Below the pieces are notes generated by a model, which was given only the letters and a program-made list of their open reading frames with translations, did not search any database and was not told where the DNA came from. A program made the translations under genes and the position numbers. Shown here one piece after another: positions 2,567-59,737 of a DNA stretch of 64,000 nucleotides (within the stretch, counting starts at the first letter, position 1; every line of letters starts with the position of its first letter). This DNA is from a virus: UHGV virus genome UHGV-0225074; one strand, given 5' to 3'.

Positions 2567-2793
2567 AAATTGATGACGCGATAACATACGCCACGGATCA
2601 CGGTTGCAAAGTATCAGATGATTTTATTCGTAAGGGTACAAGACTTAAAGCATTCTATGTTATGGATGGAATAATCCAGGTTATGATCACTCAGTGCCAT
2701 AAAGGGGCGCGGCGCTATCGTGTGAACGGCGAAGAGTACAGCCGAGCGCAAGCAATAATTTCCGCTGTAAACTATCTAAAACAATATGGTTAG
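2560..2793 (+). CDS. hypothetical protein (77 aa)
   Basis: Coupled ORF, last of rightward early block. Confidence 0.5.
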   Translation: MLKIDDAITYATDHGCKVSDDFIRKGTRLKAFYVMDGIIQVMITQCHKGARRYRVNGEEYSRAQAIISAVNYLKQYG

Positions 2794-2816
2794 CCAGTCA
2801 TAAGACAACCACACAA

Positions 2817-2842
2817 AGGCCAGGTTTTTACCTGGCTTTTCT
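2817..2842 (+). terminator. rho-independent terminator
   Basis: GCCAGG/CCTGGC stem, 6-nt loop, TTTT run after stop of 2560..2793. Confidence 0.6.
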
Positions 2843-3178
2843 CTTTGCAGATCCACACCATAAACAACCCACACCACGGCCCCACCGCTATGCAAAAAAG
2901 TGCATAATTGAGATCTAACACAAGACATACCATGATGAGGGTAACCGATAACCACGCTCAAAACGCTTTATATTGCGTTTAATTGTGTGTCGGTCCTGGC
3001 TTTTCACCCCACAACCCCACCTAATTAATAACGCATGTTATTAACTGAATAAATCATGCATTTCTATGCACTGGAAGTGAATATGAGCATAAATCAATAT
3101 AATGATAACTTTTCTCATCTAACCTATTGTGTGAACTGGTTTTATTGAGCATAAAAATAAAATCTTGTCAAATAAAAA

Positions 3179-3420
3179 TCGTTCGCGTAATCGTGGGGAG
3201 TGGCGCGAGCGTAGCGAGCGACACAATAACACGGGAGTAACTCAAATGATAATCCTTATCATTTTCGTTCGCGTTATCGTGGCTCGTAGACGCTACGATT
3301 AAAAGCGAAATAGTAACATAATTTATCATTACATCCGTAATGATTAGCAAGATCATTTTATCACATCGCCACGATAACACCGATCACGCTCTGCGTGATC
3401 GCTCCCGTGTTATTGTGTCG
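3179..3420. repeat. nested repeat cluster: 19-bp perfect inverted repeat (3219-3237 / 3402-3420), direct repeats TCGTTCGCGT(A/T)ATCGTGG (3179-3196, 3265-3282), hairpin GATCACGC-tct-GCGTGATC (3382-3400)
   Basis: Read directly in sequence inside 1.7-kb gene-free region. Confidence 0.8.
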
Positions 3421-4323
3421 GTATGTGATGGTAACACATGGTTATTATATGCGATCAAATCGCATTAAATCGTGTTTAATGGTTGACAAACCATTAAAAT
3501 GATGATCGTATCTTATGAGAAAAGGCTTGTTTTTGAGCATGATTTTATCTGAAGTGTCAAGTGTTTTTGTTATCGAAAATTCCTATCAATGCCTTGCGTA
3601 GCAAGGCTTATGTGAGAATAGTTATCATTGCGGAAATGCTCAAAGTATGGCTGTGTGTTAAACACAATTCTCTCTCCTTGTCAAGCTTTTATTTATAAAT
3701 TTACAAAATATTTATATTTGCGGAATGATTCTCATTTCGAAATTGAATTCGAAATCGAAATAATAATGATTCTCATTCGTCGTCTCATTCACAAAACAAC
3801 CCTAAAACATGAATAATCACACATGAAACTATCACCACAGTAACAGTCACACCATGTAATGACCTGAAGCGGCTGGCCTATGCGTCACACTGGTAACATT
3901 GGGCATTATTAGCTTGCTATGTGTTGTTAGCTAGTGCGCATAACGTGTTTTATGTTAAATAGCGTAATTCATATAAATATAAGCTTGTCAATGACAAATC
4001 GTGCTCTAAGCTGGCAAACCATATGCTTGCTATCTGTAACATTTGATAATTATTAGTTTCGGCAAGTAACTATCATGCCTGAAGAGGCCCCGAGGGACCG
4101 GGGACCGGATCGACCTTGCCCATGATATTTTGTAAAGATCCGTAAAGATAGTTGACGCCCGGAGCTGTCCGTCTAGCACCGCAGATGGTGAGAACACAAT
4201 ATTTTTACCCAAGGGCCAAGCCATGATATTTTTCGGCAAGTGATATTTTCGGCAGGGGGTCTGTTTTGATTTCTCCACGGGGGGAAGGGGTGGTTATACG
4301 GGGAAAACAGGGGCCTGTTTACG

Positions 4324-4390
4324 CGATATGTTTATGGCATCGACACGTTACGGCAATATGTTTATGAAATTATGTTTTATCAACATATCG
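4324..4390. repeat. 9-bp inverted repeat CGATATGTT/AACATATCG enclosing direct repeats ATATGTTTATG (4326-4336, 4356-4366)
   Basis: Read directly; iteron-like arrangement in non-coding region. Confidence 0.7.
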
Positions 4391-4558
4391 GGGAGTCCCT
4401 TCAGATTGTGTGTTAACAGAATGTGCACCATTCCGAGCAGGGGTTGTGATTGTATCCTCCAGCTTCAGGAGACATGGCTCGTGTTGTGGCTTACATAAAG
4501 CATAACAGGGCTGACAGTTTACGTCAACCCTTTTTGTGTGGTAAGCCGCATAGCAGTC

Positions 4559-4678
4559 TCAACAATCGTCCTTCTTAGCCACTGGCCCAATAGATACGTA
4601 CAACATCATCCCATAAGGGATAAGGATCAGGAACGCTGTAATCAGCATCCCCAGCAATAAGAAACCCACGTCGTCCAT
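4559..4678 (-). CDS. small hydrophobic membrane protein (39 aa)
   Basis: GGAG RBS 7 nt upstream, own promoter, single TM-like segment; below ORF-track cutoff. Confidence 0.45.
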   Translation of the reverse strand: MDDVGFLLLGMLITAFLILIPYGMMLYVSIGPVAKKDDC

Positions 4679-4703
4679 AAAATTCTCCTCGTGTAATTGA
4701 TAG

Positions 4704-4736
4704 AGGAAGTATAATAGACGAGCCTGTTTACGTCAA
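4704..4736 (-). promoter_or_regulatory. sigma70-like promoter (TTGACG-17-TATACT) on minus strand
   Basis: Good -35/-10 with 17-bp spacer upstream of 39-aa ORF. Confidence 0.5.
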
Positions 4737-4761: not shown

Positions 4762-4788
4762 AAAAGAAAAGGAGCCTCTTCAGGCTCC
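4762..4788 (-). terminator. rho-independent terminator of leftward operon
   Basis: GGAGCCT/AGGCTCC hairpin followed on minus strand by TTTTCTTTT; overlaps stop of 4780..5283. Confidence 0.6.
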
Positions 4789-5283
4789 CTTATTGTGTGC
4801 TTGTTGTGTGGTGAAACCACCTCGAATTTTCATAACCCCAGTTCTGCTGTACGCCTCTTTTGTGATCCATTCTTCCTTACTGGTGTCGTACATATCCAAA
4901 ATCCTGACGGCCTCTCCTTCTTCTTCACGAACATAGCCTTCCCAAAGGTCCATAGCTACACTGGCAGGAGACCTGTATACATTTAAGATTGTTGTCCAAA
5001 AGCTGGGGGATGTTGTGTCCCTGTATTGTTTCAAAATGATCACTGCTTCATGCTTATGCTCTTTGAACCATGTAGCCATAATCTCTGCTAAATGAAATAC
5101 ATCTCCTCCGGTGTATTTGATACAGATATCGTGCAAATTACCTGGTAGAATAAAGACCTCGCAACCCTCTCTTTGCGCGTTCTCAGACCCCTCCGCTATC
5201 TTCTTGCAGTAGGCCTTGAGTCCGTCAATATCTTCGATCCACGGAAAGTGTTTAAGTTTTTTCAATTTTGGTGTTTTATACAT
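4780..5283 (-). CDS. hypothetical protein (167 aa)
   Basis: Last ORF of leftward block. Confidence 0.5.
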   Translation of the reverse strand: MYKTPKLKKLKHFPWIEDIDGLKAYCKKIAEGSENAQREGCEVFILPGNLHDICIKYTGGDVFHLAEIMATWFKEHKHEAVIILKQYRDTTSPSFWTTILNVYRSPASVAMDLWEGYVREEEGEAVRILDMYDTSKEEWITKEAYSRTGVMKIRGGFTTQQAHNKGA

Positions 5284-39509: not shown

Positions 39510-39734
39510 TCAATTGTCAATGCCGACAATTTTTCCGCCCATTCTCTCGATCTGGTTGACATGAGATACCAGTGTGCCGAGTGTGCATTCATAAGCGTAT
39601 TTCTTTACGCCACCCCAACGACGCTTCATCGTGAAGCGGATAACATGACGGGAAGATGCCCCGCGATTAATGATGGTCATTTTAAGGCGTTTAGCCAAGG
39701 CAACAATTTCAGAATAATCAATATTTTCTTCCAC
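39510..39734 (-). CDS. hypothetical protein (74 aa)
   Basis: ORF. Confidence 0.4.
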   Translation of the reverse strand: MEENIDYSEIVALAKRLKMTIINRGASSRHVIRFTMKRRWGGVKKYAYECTLGTLVSHVNQIERMGGKIVGIDN

Positions 39735-39785
39735 TTCGTTCTCCTTTTGTCTTGATGGGTCATTATACAGACCCAGATACGATTG

Positions 39786-52256: not shown

Positions 52257-52273
52257 TATCTACCACATCAAAC

Positions 52274-52346
52274 GTTCAGTAGCTCAGTTGGTAGAGCAGG
52301 TTCTTCATACGGACAAGGTCAGTGGTTCAATTCCGCTCTGAACGAT
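52274..52346 (+). tRNA. tRNA-Met(CAT)
   Basis: Cloverleaf by eye: CGTTCAG/CTGAACG acceptor, GCTC/GAGC D-stem, loop TTCATAC, T-loop TTCAATT. Confidence 0.6.
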
Positions 52347-52349
52347 AAG

Positions 52350-52424
52350 GCCCTCAAGCTCATTAGGTATGAGCAATCGACTCATAATCGAGAGGTAGGC
52401 AGGTTCGAATCCTCCGGGGGTCAC
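52350..52424 (+). tRNA. tRNA with CAT anticodon (Met/fMet/Ile-lysidine), CCA encoded
   Basis: Acceptor GGCCCTC/GGGGGTC with G-U pairs; loop CTCATAA; T-loop TTCGAAT. Confidence 0.55.
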
Positions 52425-52518
52425 CAATTAAAAATGTTGGCGAGGATATCTGATTGAGTTAGTATCCTCATGAACATAAACGGGACAAATTCCCAAATAA
52501 AATGCAAAGGAGAAAATT

Positions 52519-52830
52519 ATGACTAAGAAAAATACTGCTAAGAAAGTATCCGCCATCGACGCTATCAAACAGCCTTTCCAGTTTGAGTCGAAGTCTACTC
52601 AGACTCATTCTGCACCGCACGATGTGCGTCTCGGTGGTGTAGAGAAAACCGTATCAGTTTTCGATCGCCGTAAAGGCGAGTATAAATCCGAAACCCGGAT
52701 TGAAGGTGGTCAGATTATCTCTGCTTCTTACCGCATCCGCACAGGAAAGACCAAGCGTGAACGTGCTGGTAAGGTAAAGGAAACTAAGGTTGTTGAAACC
52801 GTAGCTCCGAAGAGTAAGAAGAAAAAGTAA
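52519..52830 (+). CDS. Lys-rich basic protein (103 aa)
   Basis: AAGGAG RBS; C-terminal APKSKKKK; inside tRNA array. Confidence 0.5.
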   Translation: MTKKNTAKKVSAIDAIKQPFQFESKSTQTHSAPHDVRLGGVEKTVSVFDRRKGEYKSETRIEGGQIISASYRIRTGKTKRERAGKVKETKVVETVAPKSKKKK

Positions 52831-52892
52831 TTTCTCCGGCATGGGGAATGACGATTCCGTGAAACGTCTTTAAAAACACGGGCATGTTTTCG

Positions 52893-52965
52893 GGGGTATT
52901 AACACAGCGGTTAGTGTAGCGGCCTCTTAAGCCGAAGGTCGAAGGTTCGAATCCTTCATGCCCCA
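52893..52965 (+). tRNA. tRNA-Lys(CTT), CCA encoded
   Basis: GGGGTAT/ATGCCCC acceptor, ACAC/GTGT D-stem, loop CTCTTAA, GAAGG-TTCGAAT-CCTTC T-arm. Confidence 0.6.
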
Positions 52966-53096
52966 CCAAGTTTGAAATGAGAGAGATACGGGTTCGACTC
53001 CCGTTCTTGCTGGCCCGGCTCGCGTAGTGGCACAGGGCGATAGCTTAAATGGACGAAAGTGCTCTCGTTTCAAATCTAAACCAAAAGGAGAACGAA

Positions 53097-53285
53097 ATGT
53101 TCGGATCCCTGTTACGTATGGCTGGCGATATTGTTGGTACTGCTGTTGTTGTCACGGCAACTGTTGCAGAACCTTTTGTAGATGTAGCCGCAGAAGTTCT
53201 TGACGCCGCTGATGAGATTATCGTATCACCTACCGCAGACGTCGTTGGTGAAGTTTGTGACTCCATTAAGGACATTGTACGATGA
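53097..53285 (+). CDS. small hydrophobic/acidic protein (62 aa)
   Basis: AAAGGAG RBS before ATG 53097. Confidence 0.45.
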   Translation: MFGSLLRMAGDIVGTAVVVTATVAEPFVDVAAEVLDAADEIIVSPTADVVGEVCDSIKDIVR

Positions 53286-53419
53286 GTGGCGGTGTTATCT
53301 TTATCATCATGTCAGTGATCTCTTTCCTGCTTGTTCTTTGGTATTATTGGTCATGGTTTGAAAACAACCCTACCACCGAAGAAATAATCAAAGATTCGCT
53401 TGACAAACACAATCTGTAA
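53282..53419 (+). CDS. small membrane protein (45 aa)
   Basis: ATGA coupling; single TM; not in ORF track. Confidence 0.4.
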   Translation: MSGGVIFIIMSVISFLLVLWYYWSWFENNPTTEEIIKDSLDKHNL

Positions 53420-53428
53420 GTGTAGTAT
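53400..53428 (+). promoter_or_regulatory. sigma70-like promoter (TTGACA-17-TAGTAT)
   Basis: Consensus -35 with 17-bp spacer, 30 nt upstream of 53461 gene. Confidence 0.5.
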
Positions 53429-53460
53429 TTAAAACCTAATTTAACGCAAAGGAGAACTTA

Positions 53461-54072
53461 ATGACTGATTCTAAAACTGTAATTTCCGTAACTGAACGTG
53501 CCACTAAAGCAGTAACCACTGCCGCTACTGGTCTGACTAAAGTAGTCGCTGAACTGCAATCTCTGGCAGAAGGGTCTGAAAAGATCAGTCAGGAAATTCA
53601 GTTTAAGCAGCAGGAACTGGGACAAATTGAAGTTCAGTTCAACGAAAAACTGGCAGAAGAAAAATCCAAGCTGAAGATCAAAGTTCTGGAAAATGAAGAT
53701 TCCGTTCTGAACTCTATCCTGAAAGCTCGCGGCCTTGTAGCTGTAGAACCGGGTGTTGTTGAAGACCTTCGTGCAGAGCTGGCGATCTCTCAGCAGAACA
53801 ATGCTGAAGCTGTAGAAAGCGCAGTTGCCGACGTTAAACGTAGCGCTGCAATCGAACTGAATGCGGTTAAGGCAAATCTGGAATCTGCTCACAAGGTTGC
53901 AATTGCAGAACTTACTGCGAATAGCAAGGCTAAGGATGACCGTATTGCAATGCTGACAGAACAGCTTGAAGCAGCGCGTGGTGATCTGAAGGCTGAACGC
54001 GAAACCCGTCTGGAAATCGCAAAAGCTGATGCTAACCGCCAGGGCGTTGTTGTCAACACTGGCAAAAACTAA
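53461..54072 (+). CDS. coiled-coil protein (203 aa), codon-optimised
   Basis: AAGGAG RBS; Ala/Glu/Lys-rich heptad-like sequence; E. coli-preferred codons. Confidence 0.55.
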   Translation: MTDSKTVISVTERATKAVTTAATGLTKVVAELQSLAEGSEKISQEIQFKQQELGQIEVQFNEKLAEEKSKLKIKVLENEDSVLNSILKARGLVAVEPGVVEDLRAELAISQQNNAEAVESAVADVKRSAAIELNAVKANLESAHKVAIAELTANSKAKDDRIAMLTEQLEAARGDLKAERETRLEIAKADANRQGVVVNTGKN

Positions 54073-54146
54073 TGCGTAGTGTCGACACGGATGTCGGCAA
54101 ATATTTGAAGTAACTTAAATTTTAAATTTCATGAGAGGAGAATTCT

Positions 54147-54794
54147 ATGTCTACTAAGATGTCTGTAACCCGCGCTCTGGCTACCCTGACCAAGGTTGAG
54201 GAAAAGATTCAGAAGCGTATCGAAGCGCTGAACACGATTCACATCGCGAAAGGCACTGACGCAAACCGTCAGATCCCAGGCTCTATCCAGAGCGTTGAGG
54301 ACTTCGAGAAATCTGCTCAGGCAGACTTCCAGGGTGTTCAGGATCTTCTGGCTGTTCGCGACGACCTGAAGGCGAAAGTTGTTCAGTCAAACGCTGTAAC
54401 AAAAGTTGAGATCGCTGGCGAGTCTATGACCGTAGCTCAGGCGATTGAACGTAAACGCACCATCGTTTTCAAAGAGCTTCTGCTTGGCAAACTGAAGTCT
54501 CAGTATAATCATGCTCAGGTTCGCCTGAACCGTGATACACAGGAATTCGAAGCGAAGCTTGAAGCTGCTCGTGCTCCATATGTCCAACGTGATAAAGCGC
54601 CAGACGCTGCACAGTTGGCTGTAGTAGAAGCGCCAGTTCGTAGCATGGGAACTCCTTCCATTGTCGACCCACTGGGTCTGGCAGATCGCATTCGTTCTCT
54701 GGAAGCAGAGATTGAAGACTTCAAGTCTAACGTTGACTTTGTTCTTTCCGAGTCAAATGCACGGACTGAAGTAGAGATTGAAGGATCAATCTAA
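54147..54794 (+). CDS. coiled-coil protein (215 aa), codon-optimised
   Basis: GAGAGGAG RBS; same style as 53461 gene. Confidence 0.55.
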   Translation: MSTKMSVTRALATLTKVEEKIQKRIEALNTIHIAKGTDANRQIPGSIQSVEDFEKSAQADFQGVQDLLAVRDDLKAKVVQSNAVTKVEIAGESMTVAQAIERKRTIVFKELLLGKLKSQYNHAQVRLNRDTQEFEAKLEAARAPYVQRDKAPDAAQLAVVEAPVRSMGTPSIVDPLGLADRIRSLEAEIEDFKSNVDFVLSESNARTEVEIEGSI

Positions 54795-55195
54795 AATATT
54801 TGCAGGAATTCTTGATTAACATCTTGTAATTCCTGTGAATAGCTGGTAAAGTTTTTAAATGCTGTTTTTGGTTAGCGAAGTCAGAAACATCTTGCCTCTA
54901 CCGGGGCCGGAGGTTAAACTGCTCCGAACATAATCATATAGGATGATACTTAAACGTATGTTTCCGTCAGTCCGCACAATGATGCGGTTTGATCGAAATT
55001 GTCGAATCGCGAATTCGAAAGACTTCAACATTCAGCATTCAAAGATTATCGTTCAAAGCTTAATGTTTAAACTTGAAGCTTCTAAACCGTAAAGCTAAAA
55101 TTTCTTTGATTACTTAAATCCTGGGTATAGGATCTTAGCTCACAAGATATGGCTAACTGACTCCTCCAGGCTGTTAATCGGAAACAGCATTTCTT

Positions 55196-55268
55196 GCTCG
55201 TATAGCTCAGTTGGTAGAGCAACTCCCTTGTAAGGAGAAGGTCGTGGGTTCAAGTCCTACTGCGAGCA
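55196..55268 (+). tRNA. tRNA-Thr(TGT), CCA encoded
   Basis: GCTCGTA/TGCGAGC acceptor, loop CTTGTAA, T-loop TTCAAGT. Confidence 0.65.
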
Positions 55269-55277
55269 CCAAACAAT

Positions 55278-55349
55278 TTCTCGATAGCTTACTTTGGTTA
55301 GAGCGGTCCCACGATAGGGACGGTACAGGTTCGATTCCTGTTCGAGAAG
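55278..55349 (+). tRNA. atypical tRNA-like gene, anticodon unclear (6-nt loop ACGATA on GTCCC/GGGAC stem)
   Basis: Perfect acceptor TTCTCGA/TCGAGAA, D- and T-arms present, CCA encoded, irregular anticodon arm. Confidence 0.35.
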
Positions 55350-55354
55350 CCAAT

Positions 55355-55460
55355 GCAGGGTAGGCGGTTTGTCAACCGCGAGGTCCATCCAGACCTGAAA
55401 AATATGCCAGAACTAACAGTACGGCTAAATACATAGGTGGTTAGATTCCACCGCCCTGCT
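55355..55460 (+). tRNA. atypical long (106 nt) tRNA-like gene with about 38-nt insert in the variable region
   Basis: Acceptor GCAGGGT/GCCCTGC, D-arm GCGG/CCGC, T-arm GGTGG-TTAGATT-CCACC, CCA encoded; anticodon arm irregular. Confidence 0.3.
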
Positions 55461-55645
55461 CCAAATCTATTCTGCTAGGTTCTGAAACACTTAAAATCTC
55501 CTGCATCTAGTGGGGTGTGATCTCTGTGTCGGCTTTGATATCAAGTTGATGAAAGGGATGGCGTAGGCTCTTCTTCGCAAGTAGAGGCGCTTCGGAGAGG
55601 CAACGGCGGTTGTCAGGACATCGGGACTTCACAAAATAGATTTCT

Positions 55646-55731
55646 GCGGGATTGGTGGTATTGGCAGTACACACGAGGCTTAAGACTTCGTAGGCCTCTG
55701 GGCCTTGAGGGTTCGAATCCCTCATCCCGCA
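55646..55731 (+). tRNA. tRNA-Leu(TAA), type II, CCA encoded
   Basis: GCGGGAT/ATCCCGC acceptor, loop CTTAAGA, variable-arm hairpin AGGCC/GGCCT. Confidence 0.6.
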
Positions 55732-55740
55732 CCAGTTTAA

Positions 55741-55819
55741 GAGGGCGTATCTCAACGGGCTTCTAACCCGTCGTTAATCGAGTAATTGGAGTATGCGGGT
55801 TCGAATCCTGCCGCCTTCG
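55741..55819 (+). tRNA. tRNA-Arg(TCT)-like, atypical (no clear D-arm)
   Basis: Perfect ACGGG-CTTCTAA-CCCGT anticodon arm and T-arm, CCA encoded; only 7 nt between acceptor and anticodon stem. Confidence 0.3.
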
Positions 55820-55938
55820 CCAAATTCACAGGACAGCCGGGACGGGTTTACTCCGAGCTGTGGAAGCGTCGAAAGACTATAGGACACGTCTTGACCCGAA
55901 TGTGTGGGAGCGAATTGAAATAATCGGGTCCCCCAAAA

Positions 55939-56009
55939 GCACGGTTGCTGGAGTGGCAACAGCTTTCTCTGCAAAAGAAATGTCAGGTGTTCGATTCACC
56001 TACCGTGCT
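55939..56009 (+). tRNA. tRNA-Cys(GCA), CCA encoded
   Basis: GCACGGT/ACCGTGC acceptor, TTTCT-CTGCAAA-AGAAA anticodon arm. Confidence 0.6.
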
Positions 56010-56051
56010 CCAAGTTGTTGAATATTTTTATAAAAAATGATAAAATGGCCC

Positions 56052-56080
56052 TTGACAGATAAATTTAAATCTGATAACAT
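56052..56080 (+). promoter_or_regulatory. sigma70-like promoter (TTGACA-17-TAACAT)
   Basis: Consensus -35 upstream of 56098 gene. Confidence 0.35.
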
Positions 56081-56097
56081 TAATAAGTGGGGTTATT

Positions 56098-56448
56098 ATG
56101 GCAGTAAAACAACAACTTACAAAGCGTCGTAGAGGAAAAGGTAGACCCCTTAAAGAAGAGTCTAATGCTATTCAGCTTGAGAAGAATATCCTTGACCTTA
56201 AGACCAATATGATTGCTATGATTCCTGATGCTCATAAGGTATTGAAAGATCTTATGACAAGTGCCACAACAAAGGACAATATCAGGGAAAATATTGCTCG
56301 ATTTGTAATTGAGAAAGGCGAACAAATGCTTTCTGATTACTTCGATGAAGAGAATGAAGAAGCTGAAACAACTAATGTTGATGACAATAAGTCTACTCCT
56401 ATGAGTAGGCCGTTCACAACAGATATTGTTCAGTTCAAACAAGGTTAA
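56098..56448 (+). CDS. hypothetical protein with basic N-terminus (116 aa)
   Basis: ORF inside tRNA array; KRRRGKGRP. Confidence 0.5.
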   Translation: MAVKQQLTKRRRGKGRPLKEESNAIQLEKNILDLKTNMIAMIPDAHKVLKDLMTSATTKDNIRENIARFVIEKGEQMLSDYFDEENEEAETTNVDDNKSTPMSRPFTTDIVQFKQG

Positions 56449-56450
56449 TT

Positions 56451-56531
56451 GGCTCGTTGGCAGAATGGCTATTGCAGCGGATTGTAAATCCGTGCCCTTC
56501 GGGGTTCCTGGTTCGAGTCCAGGGTGGGCCA
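56451..56531 (+). tRNA. tRNA-Tyr(GTA), type II, CCA encoded
   Basis: Loop TTGTAAA on GCGGA/TCCGT stem; variable-arm hairpin; T-loop TTCGAGT. Confidence 0.55.
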
Positions 56532-56540
56532 CCAATTAAT

Positions 56541-56613
56541 GGGAGTATAGCTCAGTCAGTAGAGCGCTCGACCGATAATCGAGAGGTCGCAGGAGCAAAG
56601 CCTGCTACTCCCA
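56541..56613 (+). tRNA. tRNA-Ile(GAT), unusual T-loop AGCAAAG
   Basis: GGGAGTA/TACTCCC acceptor, CTCGA-CCGATAA-TCGAG anticodon arm, CCA encoded. Confidence 0.5.
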
Positions 56614-56706
56614 CCACTCTCCGTCATAGTACCGCATCCTGACGTTTCGGATTGCATAATCAAGGTACTGGGAACTAGTAAGATACTATGACGGGATCGA
56701 TTTAAA

Positions 56707-56780
56707 GCGTTATTAGTGTTAGCGGTCCAGCACTCCGTCCTTCCAAGTCGGAAGCATCGGTTCGAATCCGATATAACGCT
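56707..56780 (+). tRNA. tRNA-Gly(TCC), CCA encoded
   Basis: GCGTTAT/ATAACGC acceptor, loop CTTCCAA, ATCGG-TTCGAAT-CCGAT T-arm. Confidence 0.6.
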
Positions 56781-56864
56781 CCAAATACGCCCCTAAACTG
56801 ATGAACGTCTGCGCGGCTGGAAACACCCACTCAATAGTTCAGATACCCAGGGGCAACAAACAAA

Positions 56865-56937
56865 TGCTCCTATCGGCTAAATGGACAGGCCGTCAGACTT
56901 TCAATCTGGAAATCCGAGTTCGATCCTCGGTGGGAGT
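56865..56937 (+). tRNA. tRNA-Glu(TTC), CCA encoded
   Basis: TCAGA-CTTTCAA-TCTGG anticodon arm, CCGAG-TTCGATC-CTCGG T-arm. Confidence 0.55.
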
Positions 56938-56947
56938 ACCAAATAAT

Positions 56948-57048
56948 GGGTATCTAAGGCGAATTGGAAAACGCCCGGTGAAGTGGGTGCGCACCTTGTA
57001 GCTCACTGGCATACTTGCTGAGGTTCGTTTGAGTCGGACTGATGCCCA
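56948..57048 (+). tRNA. atypical long tRNA-like element (about 100 nt)
   Basis: Acceptor GGGTATC/GATGCCC plus CCA and a good D-arm GGCG-AATTGGAAAA-CGCC; anticodon and T regions do not fold canonically. Confidence 0.25.
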
Positions 57049-57055
57049 CCAAACA

Positions 57056-57135
57056 ATGTGCGGGTAACTTAATTGCTCCGGGAGCAAGCTGGTCTCCAAA
57101 GCCAGTCGTAAGGGGTTCGACTCCTCACCTTCATG
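57056..57135 (+). tRNA. tRNA-Trp(CCA)-like, acceptor stem poorly paired
   Basis: Good D-arm TTGC/GCAA and CTGGT-CTCCAAA-GCCAG anticodon arm; T-loop TTCGACT; 3' G-CCA; 5' end uncertain. Confidence 0.3.
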
Positions 57136-57154
57136 CCAGATAATGGGGGCGACC

Positions 57155-57285
57155 GGATGTTGAAAATGACTATGATCTACCGCTGCAACGGGAAATCTTG
57201 TCGGTCATAAGTAAGCATGGCGGCAACAAAATAAGCTGAGGATTGCAGTCCGATACTTAGCCTGGCTCGGTTTCAGGCGCCCTCA
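57155..57285 (+). ncRNA. long tRNA-like or structured RNA element bracketed by acceptor-like stem GGGGGCG/CGCCCTC
   Basis: Pairing termini only; internal fold unresolved. Confidence 0.15.
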
Positions 57286-57293
57286 CCGATTGT

Positions 57294-57366
57294 AGGGAGA
57301 TGGTGTAATTGGTTAGCACACGGGTCTTTGAAATCCGTAGTTCAGGTTCAAGTCCTGATCTCCCTG
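57294..57366 (+). tRNA. tRNA-Gln(TTG), CCA encoded
   Basis: AGGGAGA/TCTCCCT acceptor, CGGGT-CTTTGAA-ATCCG anticodon arm, T-loop TTCAAGT. Confidence 0.6.
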
Positions 57367-57563
57367 CCAAGTTTGAGTGTTTTCTTTTGAGAATACTCAT
57401 GCGTGGCCTAAGCATTTATCAGATGATGTTCAACCTGTGACGTTGAGGAAGTGGGAGCGATACCCACAGGTCACCCCAATTTGCAGATACGTGATTATCT
57501 CTATCTTCCCACGTCATGTGTTCTAGTCGAGATTTTCGTTTGTACGATATCTGCCGCGAATTT

Positions 57564-57651
57564 GGTGGAATGGTCGAGAGGTTTAAGACAGCACCTTGGA
57601 AAGGTGTAGGCCCCCAAAAGGGGTCCGTAGGTTCGAATCCTACTTCCACCG
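57564..57651 (+). tRNA. tRNA-Ser(GGA), type II, CCA encoded
   Basis: GGTGGAA/TTCCACC acceptor, GCACC-TTGGAAA-GGTGT anticodon arm, long variable-arm hairpin. Confidence 0.6.
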
Positions 57652-57672
57652 CCACTTTATGGAGGGTTTATG

Positions 57673-57828
57673 CAGAAACTTTTGCGTTGCAAGAAAGTGT
57701 TTGGACGCTGTAGGCTCCACGGTAGTAACTGTGGTGTTGCAGAAGAAATTCAATCAGTCCCTATTACTCGTGCGAAAGAAAAAGCAGATCTTCGTAAAGA
57801 AATTAAAGAACAATTGGAAGATTAACCC
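57673..57828 (+). CDS. possible small Cys-rich protein (51 aa)
   Basis: GGAGGG upstream (short spacing); C..C..C..C; stop lies inside tRNA-Ser(GCT) 5' end. Confidence 0.2.
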
Positions 57829-57905
57829 TAATCAGGTAAGGGATCTCTTTGCTAAAGAGACAGTAGCTCCGAAAGGGGTGTGCGAGTTCAAGTCTTGCAT
57901 CTTCC
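57816..57905 (+). tRNA. tRNA-Ser(GCT), type II, CCA encoded
   Basis: GGAAGAT/ATCTTCC acceptor, TCTCT-TTGCTAA-AGAGA anticodon arm, variable-arm hairpin. Confidence 0.55.
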
Positions 57906-57933
57906 GCCAAAACAACAAGGAGGAACAAATCGA

Positions 57934-58380
57934 ATGGCGACGAAAACTGTTTTGAAAACAGCCGAGCATGATGAGTGCCTTGGGAGTTCAACTCTCCCTT
58001 CCTCCGCCAAATATTGCAATGGGTGCGCAACAACGTATCCAATAAGCGAGTTCTACACGATAGGTAAGTACAAAGACAAAATGAAATATAAACCTTTGTG
58101 CAAACGTTGTGAGAATAAACGCAGAAAAGAAAGGAATCTTGAGATAATCAAGGAAGTGTTTGGAGAAAATCTCTGCTGCTCATCTTGTGGATATGACAAG
58201 TGCTTTGCTGCTCTTGACTTCCATCATGTAGATGCAGAATCGAAAGACTTCAATATCGCTAAGATGCTACTTGGGACGCCAGCAAAAGAGAAGCTGGCAG
58301 CAGAATTGAAGAAGTGTATGATTCTTTGTGCGAATTGTCACAGGGAGCACCACGCAGAAGAAAGATTATCGGGTAGGTAG
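57934..58380 (+). CDS. HNH homing endonuclease embedded in tRNA array
   Basis: AGGAGG RBS; CCSSCG ... FHHVD ... CANCHREHH HNH motif; 3' end overlaps tRNA-Lys(TTT). Confidence 0.7.
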   Translation: MATKTVLKTAEHDECLGSSTLPSSAKYCNGCATTYPISEFYTIGKYKDKMKYKPLCKRCENKRRKERNLEIIKEVFGENLCCSSCGYDKCFAALDFHHVDAESKDFNIAKMLLGTPAKEKLAAELKKCMILCANCHREHHAEERLSGR

Positions 58381-58443
58381 CCGAGCGGTCAGGCATTCGC
58401 CTTTTAAGCGAAGAGACGATGGGTTCAAATCCCTCCCTTCCCA
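58371..58443 (+). tRNA. tRNA-Lys(TTT), CCA encoded (T-stem weak)
   Basis: TTCGC-CTTTTAA-GCGAA anticodon arm, T-loop TTCAAAT. Confidence 0.45.
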
Positions 58444-58506
58444 CCAAATTGAATCGGTTAAAATAATTCTTGCAAAAGGTTGTTTTCACTGGTAAAGTAT
58501 TAAAAT

Positions 58507-58588
58507 GACGAGCTGGTTCATTGGTAGAACGGCGGACTGTTAATCCGCGAGCATTAGCTCTATGTAGGTTCAATTCCTACGCTCGTCG
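58507..58588 (+). tRNA. tRNA-Asn(GTT), long variable arm, CCA encoded
   Basis: GACGAGC/GCTCGTC acceptor, GCGGA-CTGTTAA-TCCGC anticodon arm, GTAGG-TTCAATT-CCTAC T-arm. Confidence 0.6.
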
Positions 58589-58598
58589 CCAAATTTAT

Positions 58599-58671
58599 GG
58601 GGATATGGTATTAGCGGCAAACATACTGGCCTGTCACGCCGGAGTCACGGGTTCGAATCCCGTTATCCTCG
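58599..58671 (+). tRNA. tRNA-Asp(GTC), CCA encoded
   Basis: CTGGC-CTGTCAC-GCCGG anticodon arm, ACGGG-TTCGAAT-CCCGT T-arm. Confidence 0.5.
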
Positions 58672-58678
58672 CCATCTT

Positions 58679-58749
58679 GGGAAATTAGTTAAGTGATATA
58701 ATGGCCTCTGGTGCTGAGGGCGTCTCCTGTTCGACTCAGGAATTTCCCG
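58679..58749 (+). tRNA. tRNA-His(GTG)? (anticodon loop TGGTGCT irregular), CCA encoded
   Basis: GGGAAAT/ATTTCCC acceptor, GTTA/TAAT D-stem, TCCTG-TTCGACT-CAGGA T-arm. Confidence 0.4.
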
Positions 58750-58894
58750 CCAATTTGATATGTTGATGTAAATTGCCGGAAGGCACTCAAAATGAGTTCG
58801 ACGTATCAAACCAATTGTACCCTAACGGGGCATGATATTAGCTAGCCAGCGATACCAGTTGCAGTGTCTGGGATAATTAAAATTCTGCACTTAT

Positions 58895-58969
58895 CTCTCC
58901 TTAGCGCAGTCTGGTCAGCGTGGGTGCTTTGGATGCATCGGGTCCCAGGTTCGAATCCTGGAGGGGAGA
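58895..58969 (+). tRNA. tRNA-Pro(TGG), CCA encoded
   Basis: GGTGC-TTTGGAT-GCATC anticodon arm, CCAGG-TTCGAAT-CCTGG T-arm. Confidence 0.6.
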
Positions 58970-59031
58970 CCAAATAAGGTTTATCGTGGGGCGATGGAAA
59001 CTTAGTTAACCATGCGACGGTAAAAATTAAT

Positions 59032-59101
59032 GTGGGTGTCCTGACGGACAGGCAACGGTCTACGAAGCCGTTTGATGTAGGTTCGAGTCCTTCCATCCAC
59101 A
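59032..59101 (+). tRNA. tRNA-Arg(ACG), short D-loop, CCA encoded
   Basis: ACGGT-CTACGAA-GCCGT anticodon arm, T-loop TTCGAGT. Confidence 0.5.
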
Positions 59102-59108
59102 CCACCAT

Positions 59109-59181
59109 GGGGCTGTAGTTTATTTGGATAAAATCACAGGCTTGCACCTTGTAGAACTGAGTTCGATTCTCAGTGGCTCCA
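59109..59181 (+). tRNA. tRNA-Ala(TGC) with G3:U70, CCA encoded
   Basis: ACAGG-CTTGCAC-CTTGT anticodon arm, CTGAG-TTCGATT-CTCAG T-arm; G3-U70 AlaRS identity pair. Confidence 0.55.
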
Positions 59182-59350
59182 CCAAATGAAGAAGCCGGAC
59201 TCGGTGTACAACGACATGGCAAGTCTTCGGCGTTAAAGGCATCCCTGGTACAAATGTGCTTTACACGGAGCAAGGATTGATGAGTATATTGCCTATAAGT
59301 GCTTGTCATGGTATTTGTCCGAGGGTGGCATTCTCCCGAAGGATCGATTA

Positions 59351-59432
59351 GGGCAAGTGGCGAAATTGGTAGACGCACCAGATTTAGGTTCTGGCGTCCT
59401 ATGACGTGAGAGTTCGAGTCTCTCCTTGCCCA
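59351..59432 (+). tRNA. tRNA-Leu(TAG), type II, CCA encoded
   Basis: GGGCAAG/CTTGCCC acceptor, GCG-AAATTGGTAGA-CGC D-arm, CCAGA-TTTAGGT-TCTGG anticodon arm, variable-arm hairpin. Confidence 0.65.
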
Positions 59433-59441
59433 CCACACATC

Positions 59442-59524
59442 GGGTCGGTAGCTCAGTTGGTAGAGCACCTGATTGAAGATCAGGGTGTCGGTGGTTCGAA
59501 TCCACCCCGTCCCGCCAAACAATT
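59442..59524 (+). tRNA. tRNA-Phe(GAA), CCA encoded
   Basis: GCTC-AGTTGGTA-GAGC D-arm, CCTGA-TTGAAGA-TCAGG anticodon arm, GGTGG-TTCGAAT-CCACC T-arm. Confidence 0.6.
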
Positions 59525-59618
59525 CTCTGTGATGCAGGTTCAACTCCTGTCAGGACGGCAAAGCCTTCGGGTGGAGAGGTCGTGTGCGTGAAGTGGTTAA
59601 CGGCAGGGAATCCAATAT

Positions 59619-59691
59619 TGCGGGTTAGAACTCAGGGAGTTCATCGGTCTCATAAGCCGAACGAAGAGCAGTTCGAGTCTGCTACCCGCAT
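59619..59691 (+). tRNA. third tRNA with CAT anticodon (Met/fMet/Ile-lysidine), CCA encoded
   Basis: TGCGGGT/ACCCGCA acceptor, GAAC/GTTC D-stem, TCGGT-CTCATAA-GCCGA anticodon arm, AGCAG-TTCGAGT-CTGCT T-arm. Confidence 0.55.
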
Positions 59692-59737
59692 CCAAATTCT
59701 AATAACAATAAATTATTATATCTCCTCTCCTTTGCCT

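Follow-up and report, generated by a model that had tools for sequence, protein, structure and literature searches.

What does the gene-free, repeat-rich region at positions 2850-4558 of the virus genome UHGV-0225074 do for its phage? A preliminary description, made from the letters of the 64,000-nucleotide stretch analyzed here (the window, to which positions refer unless another genome is named), had proposed a replication origin, a packaging region or a regulatory RNA locus. Of these three options, packaging, or rather a genome end, was borne out by homology from boundary to boundary with a direct terminal repeat (DTR) of related phages, while neither the origin nor the regulatory RNA was demonstrated. 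The gene-free stretch is very probably the genome-end and T7-type concatemer-junction region of the phage, and it holds both the DTR and a nested hairpin element.

Approximately 60 phage records matched the region and its flanks, with 80-95% identity in all but four, and except for two stray matches all of them belong to the Vequintavirinae. The closest matches were members of the genus Mydovirus (phages of Klebsiella, Proteus and Raoultella, and the E. coli phage AV124), followed by Seunavirus and Henunavirus at ~70%. Judged by these matches, the phage of the window belongs to Mydovirus within the Vequintavirinae and is rV5-like, with a genome of ~145 kb. The Felix O1-like affiliation assumed at the outset is thus wrong; similarity to Felix O1 is annotated for some structural genes of rV5, and these annotations may have been the source of that guess.

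Several records of relatives were found in a sensitive search to start or stop inside the region. The repeat and its termini are:

3661-4173, no strand assigned: DTR of the virion chromosome, 513 bp, one copy present here, identified by homology to phages DP, KPP-1 and KP12
3661: left terminus of the DTR, starting 5'-AACACAATTCTCTCTCCTTGTCAAG
4173: right terminus of the DTR, ending ...GGAGCTGTCCGTC-3'

Klebsiella phage DP (OP296941.1) was deposited with an annotated repeat_region of 514 bp at both record ends; the copies are identical, and their left end corresponds to window 3661 and their right end to 4173. For KPP-1, approximately twofold read coverage over its positions 116,316-116,829 was described and a 514-bp DTR with T7-type packaging was confirmed with PhageTerm (PMC9862379). 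This segment aligns to window 4173..3661 with 98% identity, and the record of KP12 opens exactly at window 4173. As the Mydovirus KPP-X1 was also assigned a DTR by PhageTerm (PMC13064021), this type of end is already known for the genus and the window is another instance of it. The assignment combines homology to an experimentally supported DTR at the same two boundaries with terminus positions and motifs that are kept in related genera. The window contains the 513-bp sequence in a single copy, as expected if both copies were merged during assembly; a concatemer junction would likewise hold just one. No other part of the region is as well conserved within Mydovirus, where identity reaches 95-100% along most of the DTR and 85-92% in three bins of 30 nt. 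Conservation jumps at the left boundary, and the right cut lies in the block CTGTCCGTC^TAGCAC (^ marks the cut), which is kept in Seunavirus too.

Corresponding ends were observed in Vequintavirus. Seven records of this genus begin or finish at one of two points 459 bp apart in the gene-free region of rV5, and both ends of phage EdH4 consist of an exact 459-bp repeat. Read in reverse orientation, the boundary motifs of rV5 resemble those of the window, with TCTCYTYTTGTCAAG on one side and GTCCGYC^..AGCAC on the other. At one boundary rV5 reads ^GACAAGTTTTTCTCCTCTTTGTCAAG versus ^AACACAATTCTCTCTCCTTGTCAAG in the window, and at the other TTTCGTCCGCC^aggcagcac versus GCTGTCCGTC^tagcaccgc. The genome of rV5 was originally described as circularly permuted; the available records point to short DTRs across the subfamily Vequintavirinae and would correct that view.

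Absence of genes from 2850-4558 was supported at several levels. Four mechanical open reading frames (ORFs) of at least 60 aa overlap the region, namely 2776-2961(-), 3168-3380(-), 3628-3816(+) and 4030-4278(-), and several depositors have annotated short ORFs there. Codon positions were compared across 15 aligned genomes for the last three of these and for 3934-4056+, 4328-4498+ and 3880-4046+, with 2776-2961(-) left out. In all six frames substitutions were spread evenly across the codon positions without an excess at the third, as illustrated by the variable sites in 3628-3816 (27/24/25), 3934-4056 (18/19/20) and 4328-4498 (20/21/17). In these same three frames length differences among relatives are not multiples of 3, so the frame is not kept, and none of the six ORFs tested inside the region matched PHROGs (0/6). 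The earlier statement that no credible ORF of 60 aa or more exists therefore holds in the sense that the mechanical ORFs, where tested, have neither a codon signature nor a PHROGs match. The homologous stretches of relatives were likewise empty: ordinary genes, which had been named as a possible refutation, are missing from the hand-annotated counterparts in PVP-SE1 (2.2 kb) and rV5 (2.6 kb), the latter also situated between convergent gene clusters. The region is truly non-coding and consists of a mosaic of conserved non-coding blocks.

Left of the DTR, the inverted and direct repeats noticed earlier turned out to be parts of one nested structure:

3219-3420, no strand assigned: nested inverted-repeat element with outer arms 3219-3237 / 3402-3420
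3179-3196, plus strand: direct-repeat copy 1, TCGTTCGCGTAATCGTGG, the outlying copy of GT(T/A)ATCGTGG, lying in a GC-rich hairpin (3180-3188 / 3203-3211)
3244-3252 / 3256-3264: left hairpin
3265-3282: direct-repeat copy 2
3273-3283 and 3368-3378: inner arms, GTTATCGTGGC and GCCACGATAAC
3284-3298 and 3325-3344: interior hairpins
3382-3389 / 3393-3400: right hairpin, the predicted 8-bp stem GATCACGC/GCGTGATC

Including the upstream direct repeat, the element spans 3179-3420 and its right arm ends ~240 bp left of the DTR. All repeats described for it beforehand were recovered. The perfect 19-bp inverted repeat has no other copy in the window (0.00 expected by chance), the 18-bp direct repeat TCGTTCGCGT(A/T)ATCGTGG gave its two matches in 64 kb versus 0.03 expected, and the core GTTATCGTGG occurs three times, at 3187 (with one mismatch), at 3273 and inverted at 3369-3378. 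The element as a whole is single-copy in the window. In the predicted fold an outer stem (3219-3238 / 3401-3420) encloses the left hairpin, the inner stem, the interior hairpins and the right hairpin. Folded as RNA, 3175-3425 reached -101.8 kcal/mol on the plus strand (z -9.4) and -101.4 kcal/mol on the minus strand (z -8.9); folded as single-stranded DNA, 3215-3424 reached -57.8 kcal/mol (z -10.9).

Between genera it is not the DTR that is best conserved but 3120-3290 and 3360-3420, with 79-92% identity in Seunavirus, and this is the only part of the region detectable in Erwinia phages. The outer arms are perfectly complementary over 18-22 nt in all 23 sequences that contain both arms, covering four genera, although the arm sequence differs by genus. 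Six haplotypes of the outer arm were distinguished in Mydovirus and Seunavirus (...CACGGGAG, ...CACGAGAG, ...CACGAGGG, ...CACTAGGG, ...CACGGGG and CACTATAA variants), each of which is met by its exact complement in the opposite arm. Unrelated arm sequences are present in Erwinia phage pEp_SNUABM_01 (GCCACCTATAAAAGCAAGTAG), in a 148,842-bp IMG/VR contig (AGCCACCTATAAACGCTGATAG) and in rV5 and EdH4 (GACATAATATAAAAGCAG); they stand at the same place and are still perfect over 18-22 nt. Covariation extends to the small hairpins, of which the left one reads AATGATAA/TTATCATT, AATGCGA/TCGCATT or AACGATA/TATCGTT and the right one GATCACGC/GCGTGATC, GATCAAC/GTTGATC, GATTAAC/GTTAATC or GATTAGC/GCTAATC. 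Compensatory changes were counted in four helices. In an alignment of 19 sequences 89% of the cells pair, compared with 29-50% in controls with slid partners, and 20 pairs are changed on both sides, compared with 10.7 +/- 1.8 in shuffles (0/500). These statistics are conservative, because the alignment partly loses register in the two most divergent sequences. The hairpin arms are kept complementary by selection.

Other parts of the element are kept as sequence. The inner arms (GTTATCGTGGC) are invariant in three genera, and the upstream direct-repeat copy is nearly invariant across the 19 sequences of three genera; rV5 shows the same arrangement with another motif, GGCAACTAT. The orientation of the element is identical in all genomes examined, and its distance to the same DTR boundary amounts to 240 bp in the window, 308 bp in rV5 and 200 bp in EdH4.

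Scans of metagenome and bacterial collections with a 17-mer of the element returned mostly chance matches. Once the partner arm was required, four phage-like metagenome contigs were left, and the element was found in no genome of the bacterial collections scanned. In a limited search of the accessible literature, with most subscription journals outside it, no description of the hairpin element was found, and it is apparently undescribed; a similarly limited search returned no Vequintavirinae phage transcriptome covering it. Record breaks within the hairpin loop were considered as possible DNA ends and dismissed: those of SalP219 and SEW_6S have exact end overlaps of 127 and 91 nt and are read as assembly artefacts, and the record of LNA4 is circular and was opened arbitrarily. 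Two IMG/VR contigs (93,589 bp, L020, and 83,217 bp, L022) stop inside or beside the element, which may reflect assembly trouble at inverted repeats and not real ends.

Repeats were also found around the two cut sites:

3654-3666, no strand assigned: palindrome TGTGTT-A-AACACA, straddling the left cut site 3660/3661
4120-4131 and 4221-4232, plus strand: two copies of CCATGATATTTT, the first ending 42 nt short of the right cut, the second beginning 48 nt past it

The left half of the palindrome varies in relatives, while TAAACACA and the sequence rightward of it are conserved in both Mydovirus and Seunavirus, and the palindrome is a candidate terminase site. The CCATGATATTTT pair, with related TTTCGGCAAGT repeats at 4057 and 4231, has ATGATATTTT cores that are conserved in Seunavirus and likewise represents candidate protein-binding and candidate terminase sites. 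The DTR itself contains the AT-rich TTCGAAAT repeats (3736-3759), the GGGACCG GGGACCG tandem (4094-4107) and the palindrome TTGTCAATGACAA, all of which had been listed before; only the palindrome had been misplaced, its true position being 3985-3997, 2 nt further left.

How might such a region work? The virion DNA would be linear, starting at 3661, going once round the map and ending at 4173, with the 513-bp DTR at both ends. In phages with short terminal repeats, concatemers carry one repeat per junction. Replicating concatemers of this phage would accordingly hold one DTR copy per junction, as seen in the assembly, and because of this the terminase would have to cut at both DTR boundaries while the repeat is duplicated for every packaged genome (T7-type packaging). 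The surrounding ~1.2 kb would be devoid of genes because it is filled with cis-acting signals, among them the element at 3179-3420. Located ~240 bp left of the DTR copy at the right-hand chromosome end, the element would act as DNA paired within the strand, in the form of a cruciform or of a snap-back hairpin, equipped with GT(T/A)ATCGTGG motifs for protein binding, and would function in concatemer processing, DTR duplication or packaging recognition; a part in replication initiation would be possible too. It could be the site of concatemer nicking and of a snap-back or cruciform extrusion that primes repeat duplication, or it could be a loading site for the terminase or the replisome. That the nested element is a DNA-level structure for concatemer processing, repeat duplication or packaging recognition, its invariant motifs being protein-binding sites, is proposed tentatively. 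In the same guarded sense it may represent an undescribed cis-acting DNA structure across the Vequintavirinae, defined by perfectly paired arms of 18-22 bp, an invariant motif for protein binding that occurs both directly repeated and inverted, and a fixed position 200-310 bp away from one of the DTR boundaries.

Two alternatives start from the same repeats and folds. As a replication origin, which would be compatible with a genome end and not exclude it, the region would use the GT(T/A)ATCGTGG repeats as initiator-binding iterons, would unwind at 3687-3780 and would prime replication or load the helicase at the hairpins. This is rather doubtful. The motif is present three times (two direct copies 86 bp apart and one inverted) and invariant across three genera, the AT-rich block 3687-3780 (32-35% G+C, ~400 bp away) is almost 100% conserved in Mydovirus, and the T7 origin phiOR (39,229) lies in the same neighborhood as the concatemer junction, with the title of Chung and Hinkle (1990) indicating that origin and junction together allow packaging. 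However, there are three copies only, their spacing is irregular, no initiator gene is adjacent, the neighbouring genes having no recognizable function, and 2850-4558 contains no DnaA box (TTWTNCACA). The GC skew does turn at ~4400-4600, but this coincides with the switch of coding strand and transcription direction and is therefore uninformative on an origin, a conclusion also reached for rV5 by its authors. A structured, multi-helix non-coding RNA of ~200-250 nt over 3175-3425, with a regulatory, antitoxin-like or scaffold function, is unlikely too. At least five helices are predicted (z ~ -9), four of them with compensatory changes; insertions in relatives (Mydo, L028) sit in loops, two mismatches would pair as G.U on the minus strand, and on that strand a GC hairpin followed by ATTTTTATTT stands just beyond the element. 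Against this, no Rfam family matched 2800-4700 even at E = 1 apart from one chance-level snoRNA, and at the gathering thresholds of Rfam 15 the window matched tRNAs only. No conserved sigma-70-like promoter was found on either side of the element, promoter-like sites not being enriched (10 versus 8.3 expected). The two strands fold equally well, and the outer stem is strictly Watson-Crick in 23/23 sequences without a real G.U intermediate; such a perfect 18-22-bp duplex is unusual for RNA stems and would be a substrate of RNase III. Moreover, the upstream hairpin favors the plus strand, which makes the wobble evidence contradictory. Equal strand stability, the Watson-Crick outer stem, the lack of a conserved promoter and the contradictory wobble evidence argue for DNA over RNA, none of them decisively.

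The other two explanations considered are very improbable. A miniature mobile element, or a remnant of one with 19-bp terminal inverted repeats, would account for perfect terminal-type repeats ~200 bp apart and for the small insertions that come and go around the element in relatives, and decayed coding sequence for the short ORFs annotated by depositors. The mobile element was rejected: there is one copy in the 64 kb window, the element occupies the same locus, orientation and approximately the same distance to the DTR in four genera and is fixed in site and orientation in every relative examined, no target-site duplication was seen in the flanks, and the bacterial genomes searched do not contain it. 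Decayed coding sequence was rejected since the ORFs show no codon signature, the three checked have frame-breaking length differences and the region is better conserved than the flanking genes. A T5-like injection stop, in which an untranslated repeat-rich block close to the entering end halts DNA entry through membrane-associated DnaA, can point to a superficial likeness with the T5 iss, which lies within the terminal repeat and is likewise untranslated and rich in repeats, inverted repeats and palindromes. It was rejected as well, because the defining DnaA-box array is missing from 2850-4558 (5 boxes in the whole window versus 6.5 expected) and the DTR measures 0.5 kb and not ~10 kb. We know of no two-step injection reported for the rV5-like group.

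Several points also weigh against the proposed genome end with a processing hairpin. The termini of this particular phage are placed by homology, and the boundaries of DP and KP12 are choices of their depositors, whose method the records leave unstated. Covariation proves pairing and neither the molecule nor the process, so that a packaging role of the hairpin is an inference. The interior of the element has the same orientation in all genomes, which speaks against replication by hairpin transfer (flip-flop). On the minus strand, two mismatches that are A.C on the plus strand would be G.U pairs, so that a minus-strand RNA is conceivable; the wobble evidence as a whole is divided between the strands, the upstream hairpin favoring plus and these mismatches minus. 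Finally, the T7 palindrome has short imperfect arms and a 3-nt loop, whereas the arms here are 164 nt apart and enclose hairpins.

The remaining features of the region and its borders are:

2817-2842, no strand assigned: intrinsic terminator acting in both directions, placed after the last ORF (2560-2793) of the rightward gene cluster; hairpin 2819-2836 in the scan, terminator on both strands in Mydo
2850-3178, no strand assigned: conserved non-coding leader with a small palindrome, TTAATAAC-GCAT-GTTATTAA, at ~3025-3044
3421-3660, no strand assigned: variable spacer between hairpin element and DTR, an insertion/deletion hot spot
4174-4506, no strand assigned: non-coding right flank with G-runs, a GC(G/A)ATATGTTTATG pair in an inverted repeat and a covarying hairpin at ~4456-4470, without coding signal
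4507-4531, minus strand: terminator-like hairpin where the leftward gene cluster ends, overlapping the promoter-like TTGACG-17-TATGCT (4527-4499); 84-85% conserved in both Mydovirus and Seunavirus
4559-4678, minus strand: 39-aa gene at the right border of the gene-free region, with its own promoter TTGACG-17-TATACT at 4736-4708

Convergent transcription onto the region and flanking terminators, both noted beforehand, were found: the last ORF on the plus strand stops at 2793, those on the minus strand extend leftward as far as 4559, and a terminator scan detected terminator-like hairpins at 2819-2836 and 4768-4791, the homologous sites of which are annotated as bidirectional terminators in phage Mydo. 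In the leader, the blocks 3030-3060 and 3090-3178 have 84-97% identity in Mydovirus and 75-87% in Seunavirus, and the genes that flank it are frequently unalignable between relatives. The 39-aa ORF matched phrog_30089 (E = 1.8e-27), is annotated in KB57, Mydo and KPP-1, and its promoter scored 10/12 in the promoter scan. The sigma-70-like site TTGACG-17-TATGCT (4499-4527, minus strand, with an upstream TG) duplicates this promoter (4708-4736) and points leftward into the non-coding flank and the DTR; it could be the source of a non-coding transcript through the junction. The GC(G/A)ATATGTTTATG repeats of the right flank were confirmed as two copies (4323-4336 and 4353-4366) inside an inverted repeat, the arms of which are not 9 bp long as described before but comprise 12 nt (4324-4335 / 4379-4390, 92% complementary). 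In the hairpin at 4456-4470 a compensatory switch from CTCC...GGAG to GTGC...GCAC was observed among relatives.

Insertions are patchily distributed over the region. A 68-nt hairpin-rich insertion is present at 3604/3605 in KPP-1, Mydo, KB57, BIS47, KNP2, Seu621, K18 and PVP-SE1. Mydo and Ro1 have an additional 53 nt at 3153, and Mydo has another 53-nt block within the loop of the left small hairpin (~3255); a block of ~100 nt is found at 4327 in AV124 and Ro1, with similar sequence in GAP31. Directly right of the outer right arm (3420), an insertion of ~77 nt was found in AV124 (Mydovirus, ~3715-3810 of the compared locus) and in the Seunavirus phages PVP-SE1 (~2550-2640) and SEW_6S. It has hairpins of its own and is flanked by the 13-bp direct duplication GTGTTAT(T/A)GTGTC; its patchy spread across genera suggests a small mobile or recombination-borne insert.

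Some of the deposited records deserve comment. Four of them (OY757067.1, OY978784.1, OY979426.1 and OY978796.1) place head, tail-spike or terminase genes on DNA that is homologous to the non-coding region; the feature tables of this OY series seem to be shifted relative to the sequence, and their annotations were disregarded. Salmonella phage SEW_6S (PQ002171.1) is filed under Demerecviridae and aligns with Seunavirus across the region. Elsewhere in the window, ARAGORN called a cluster of 24 tRNA genes on the plus strand (52273-59694), including one with an abnormal anticodon loop (tRNA-???, 55278-55352), and Rfam called an additional tRNA at 55741-55819 that is missing from the ARAGORN list.

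For annotators of this phage and its relatives, the analysis locates the true start of the chromosome; most deposited Mydovirus and Seunavirus records begin at an arbitrary point, and in several of them spurious ORFs are annotated across the region. The element belongs to a large myovirus group that is widely used in phage therapy against Klebsiella, Salmonella and E. coli. The duplication of short terminal repeats during packaging is still only modelled, mainly for T7, and because its architecture is conserved in four genera and natural compensatory variants exist, the element offers a clean genetic handle on hairpin-primed or structure-guided concatemer processing.

Compared with known systems, the DTRs of the Mydovirus phages KPP-1 and DP are homologous in sequence, have the same boundaries and occupy the same place between convergent clusters of small genes. 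Nothing essential is different, the window showing 513 instead of 514 bp and a single copy as the repeat is collapsed. Other DTRs in and near the Vequintavirinae measure 459 bp (EdH4), 475 bp (Jab) and 342 bp (BME3). The T5 iss is similar in being a large untranslated repeat-rich block that is tied to a terminal repeat and conserved across a phage group, but it lies inside a terminal repeat of ~10 kb and has an ordered array of eight DnaA boxes, none of which is found here. Iteron-type origins share a short motif in direct and inverted copies beside an AT-rich stretch, and differ from the irregular set of three copies seen here, which has no adjacent initiator gene and is embedded in a base-paired structure.

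The concatemer junction of T7 and T3, with its palindrome close by (hairpin-end intermediate of Chung, Nardone and Hinkle, 1990), resembles the window in its short DTR, fixed ends, T7-type PhageTerm class and T7-like replisome, rV5-group phages encoding a T7-like Pol A and a gp4-like primase-helicase. The hairpin of T7 arises from an imperfect palindrome that lies ~190 bp to the left of the junction. In the T7 sequence, the best inverted repeat left of the right terminal repeat was located at 39,568-39,608, centered 190 bp from the repeat at 39,778. T7 (190 bp to the center), the window (240 bp from the right arm), rV5 (308 bp) and EdH4 (200 bp) all have an inverted repeat in the unique DNA to the left of the right-hand repeat, no more than a few hundred bp away from it. 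A passage of PMC4281155, citing Chung and Hinkle (1990), reports hairpin DNA containing the terminal repeat in T7 infection and invokes it in repeat duplication, for which strand-displacement or hairpin-primed synthesis has been modelled. The two elements have no sequence similarity. T7 has a 160-bp repeat and palindrome arms of 19 nt that are 79% complementary, while the perfect arms in the window surround a repeated motif together with four to five additional hairpins. rV5-like phages also rely on the host polymerase. If its role were confirmed, the hairpin would be a variant of the T7-type junction palindrome, and a second, independent and far more elaborate case of the hairpin step proposed for T7.

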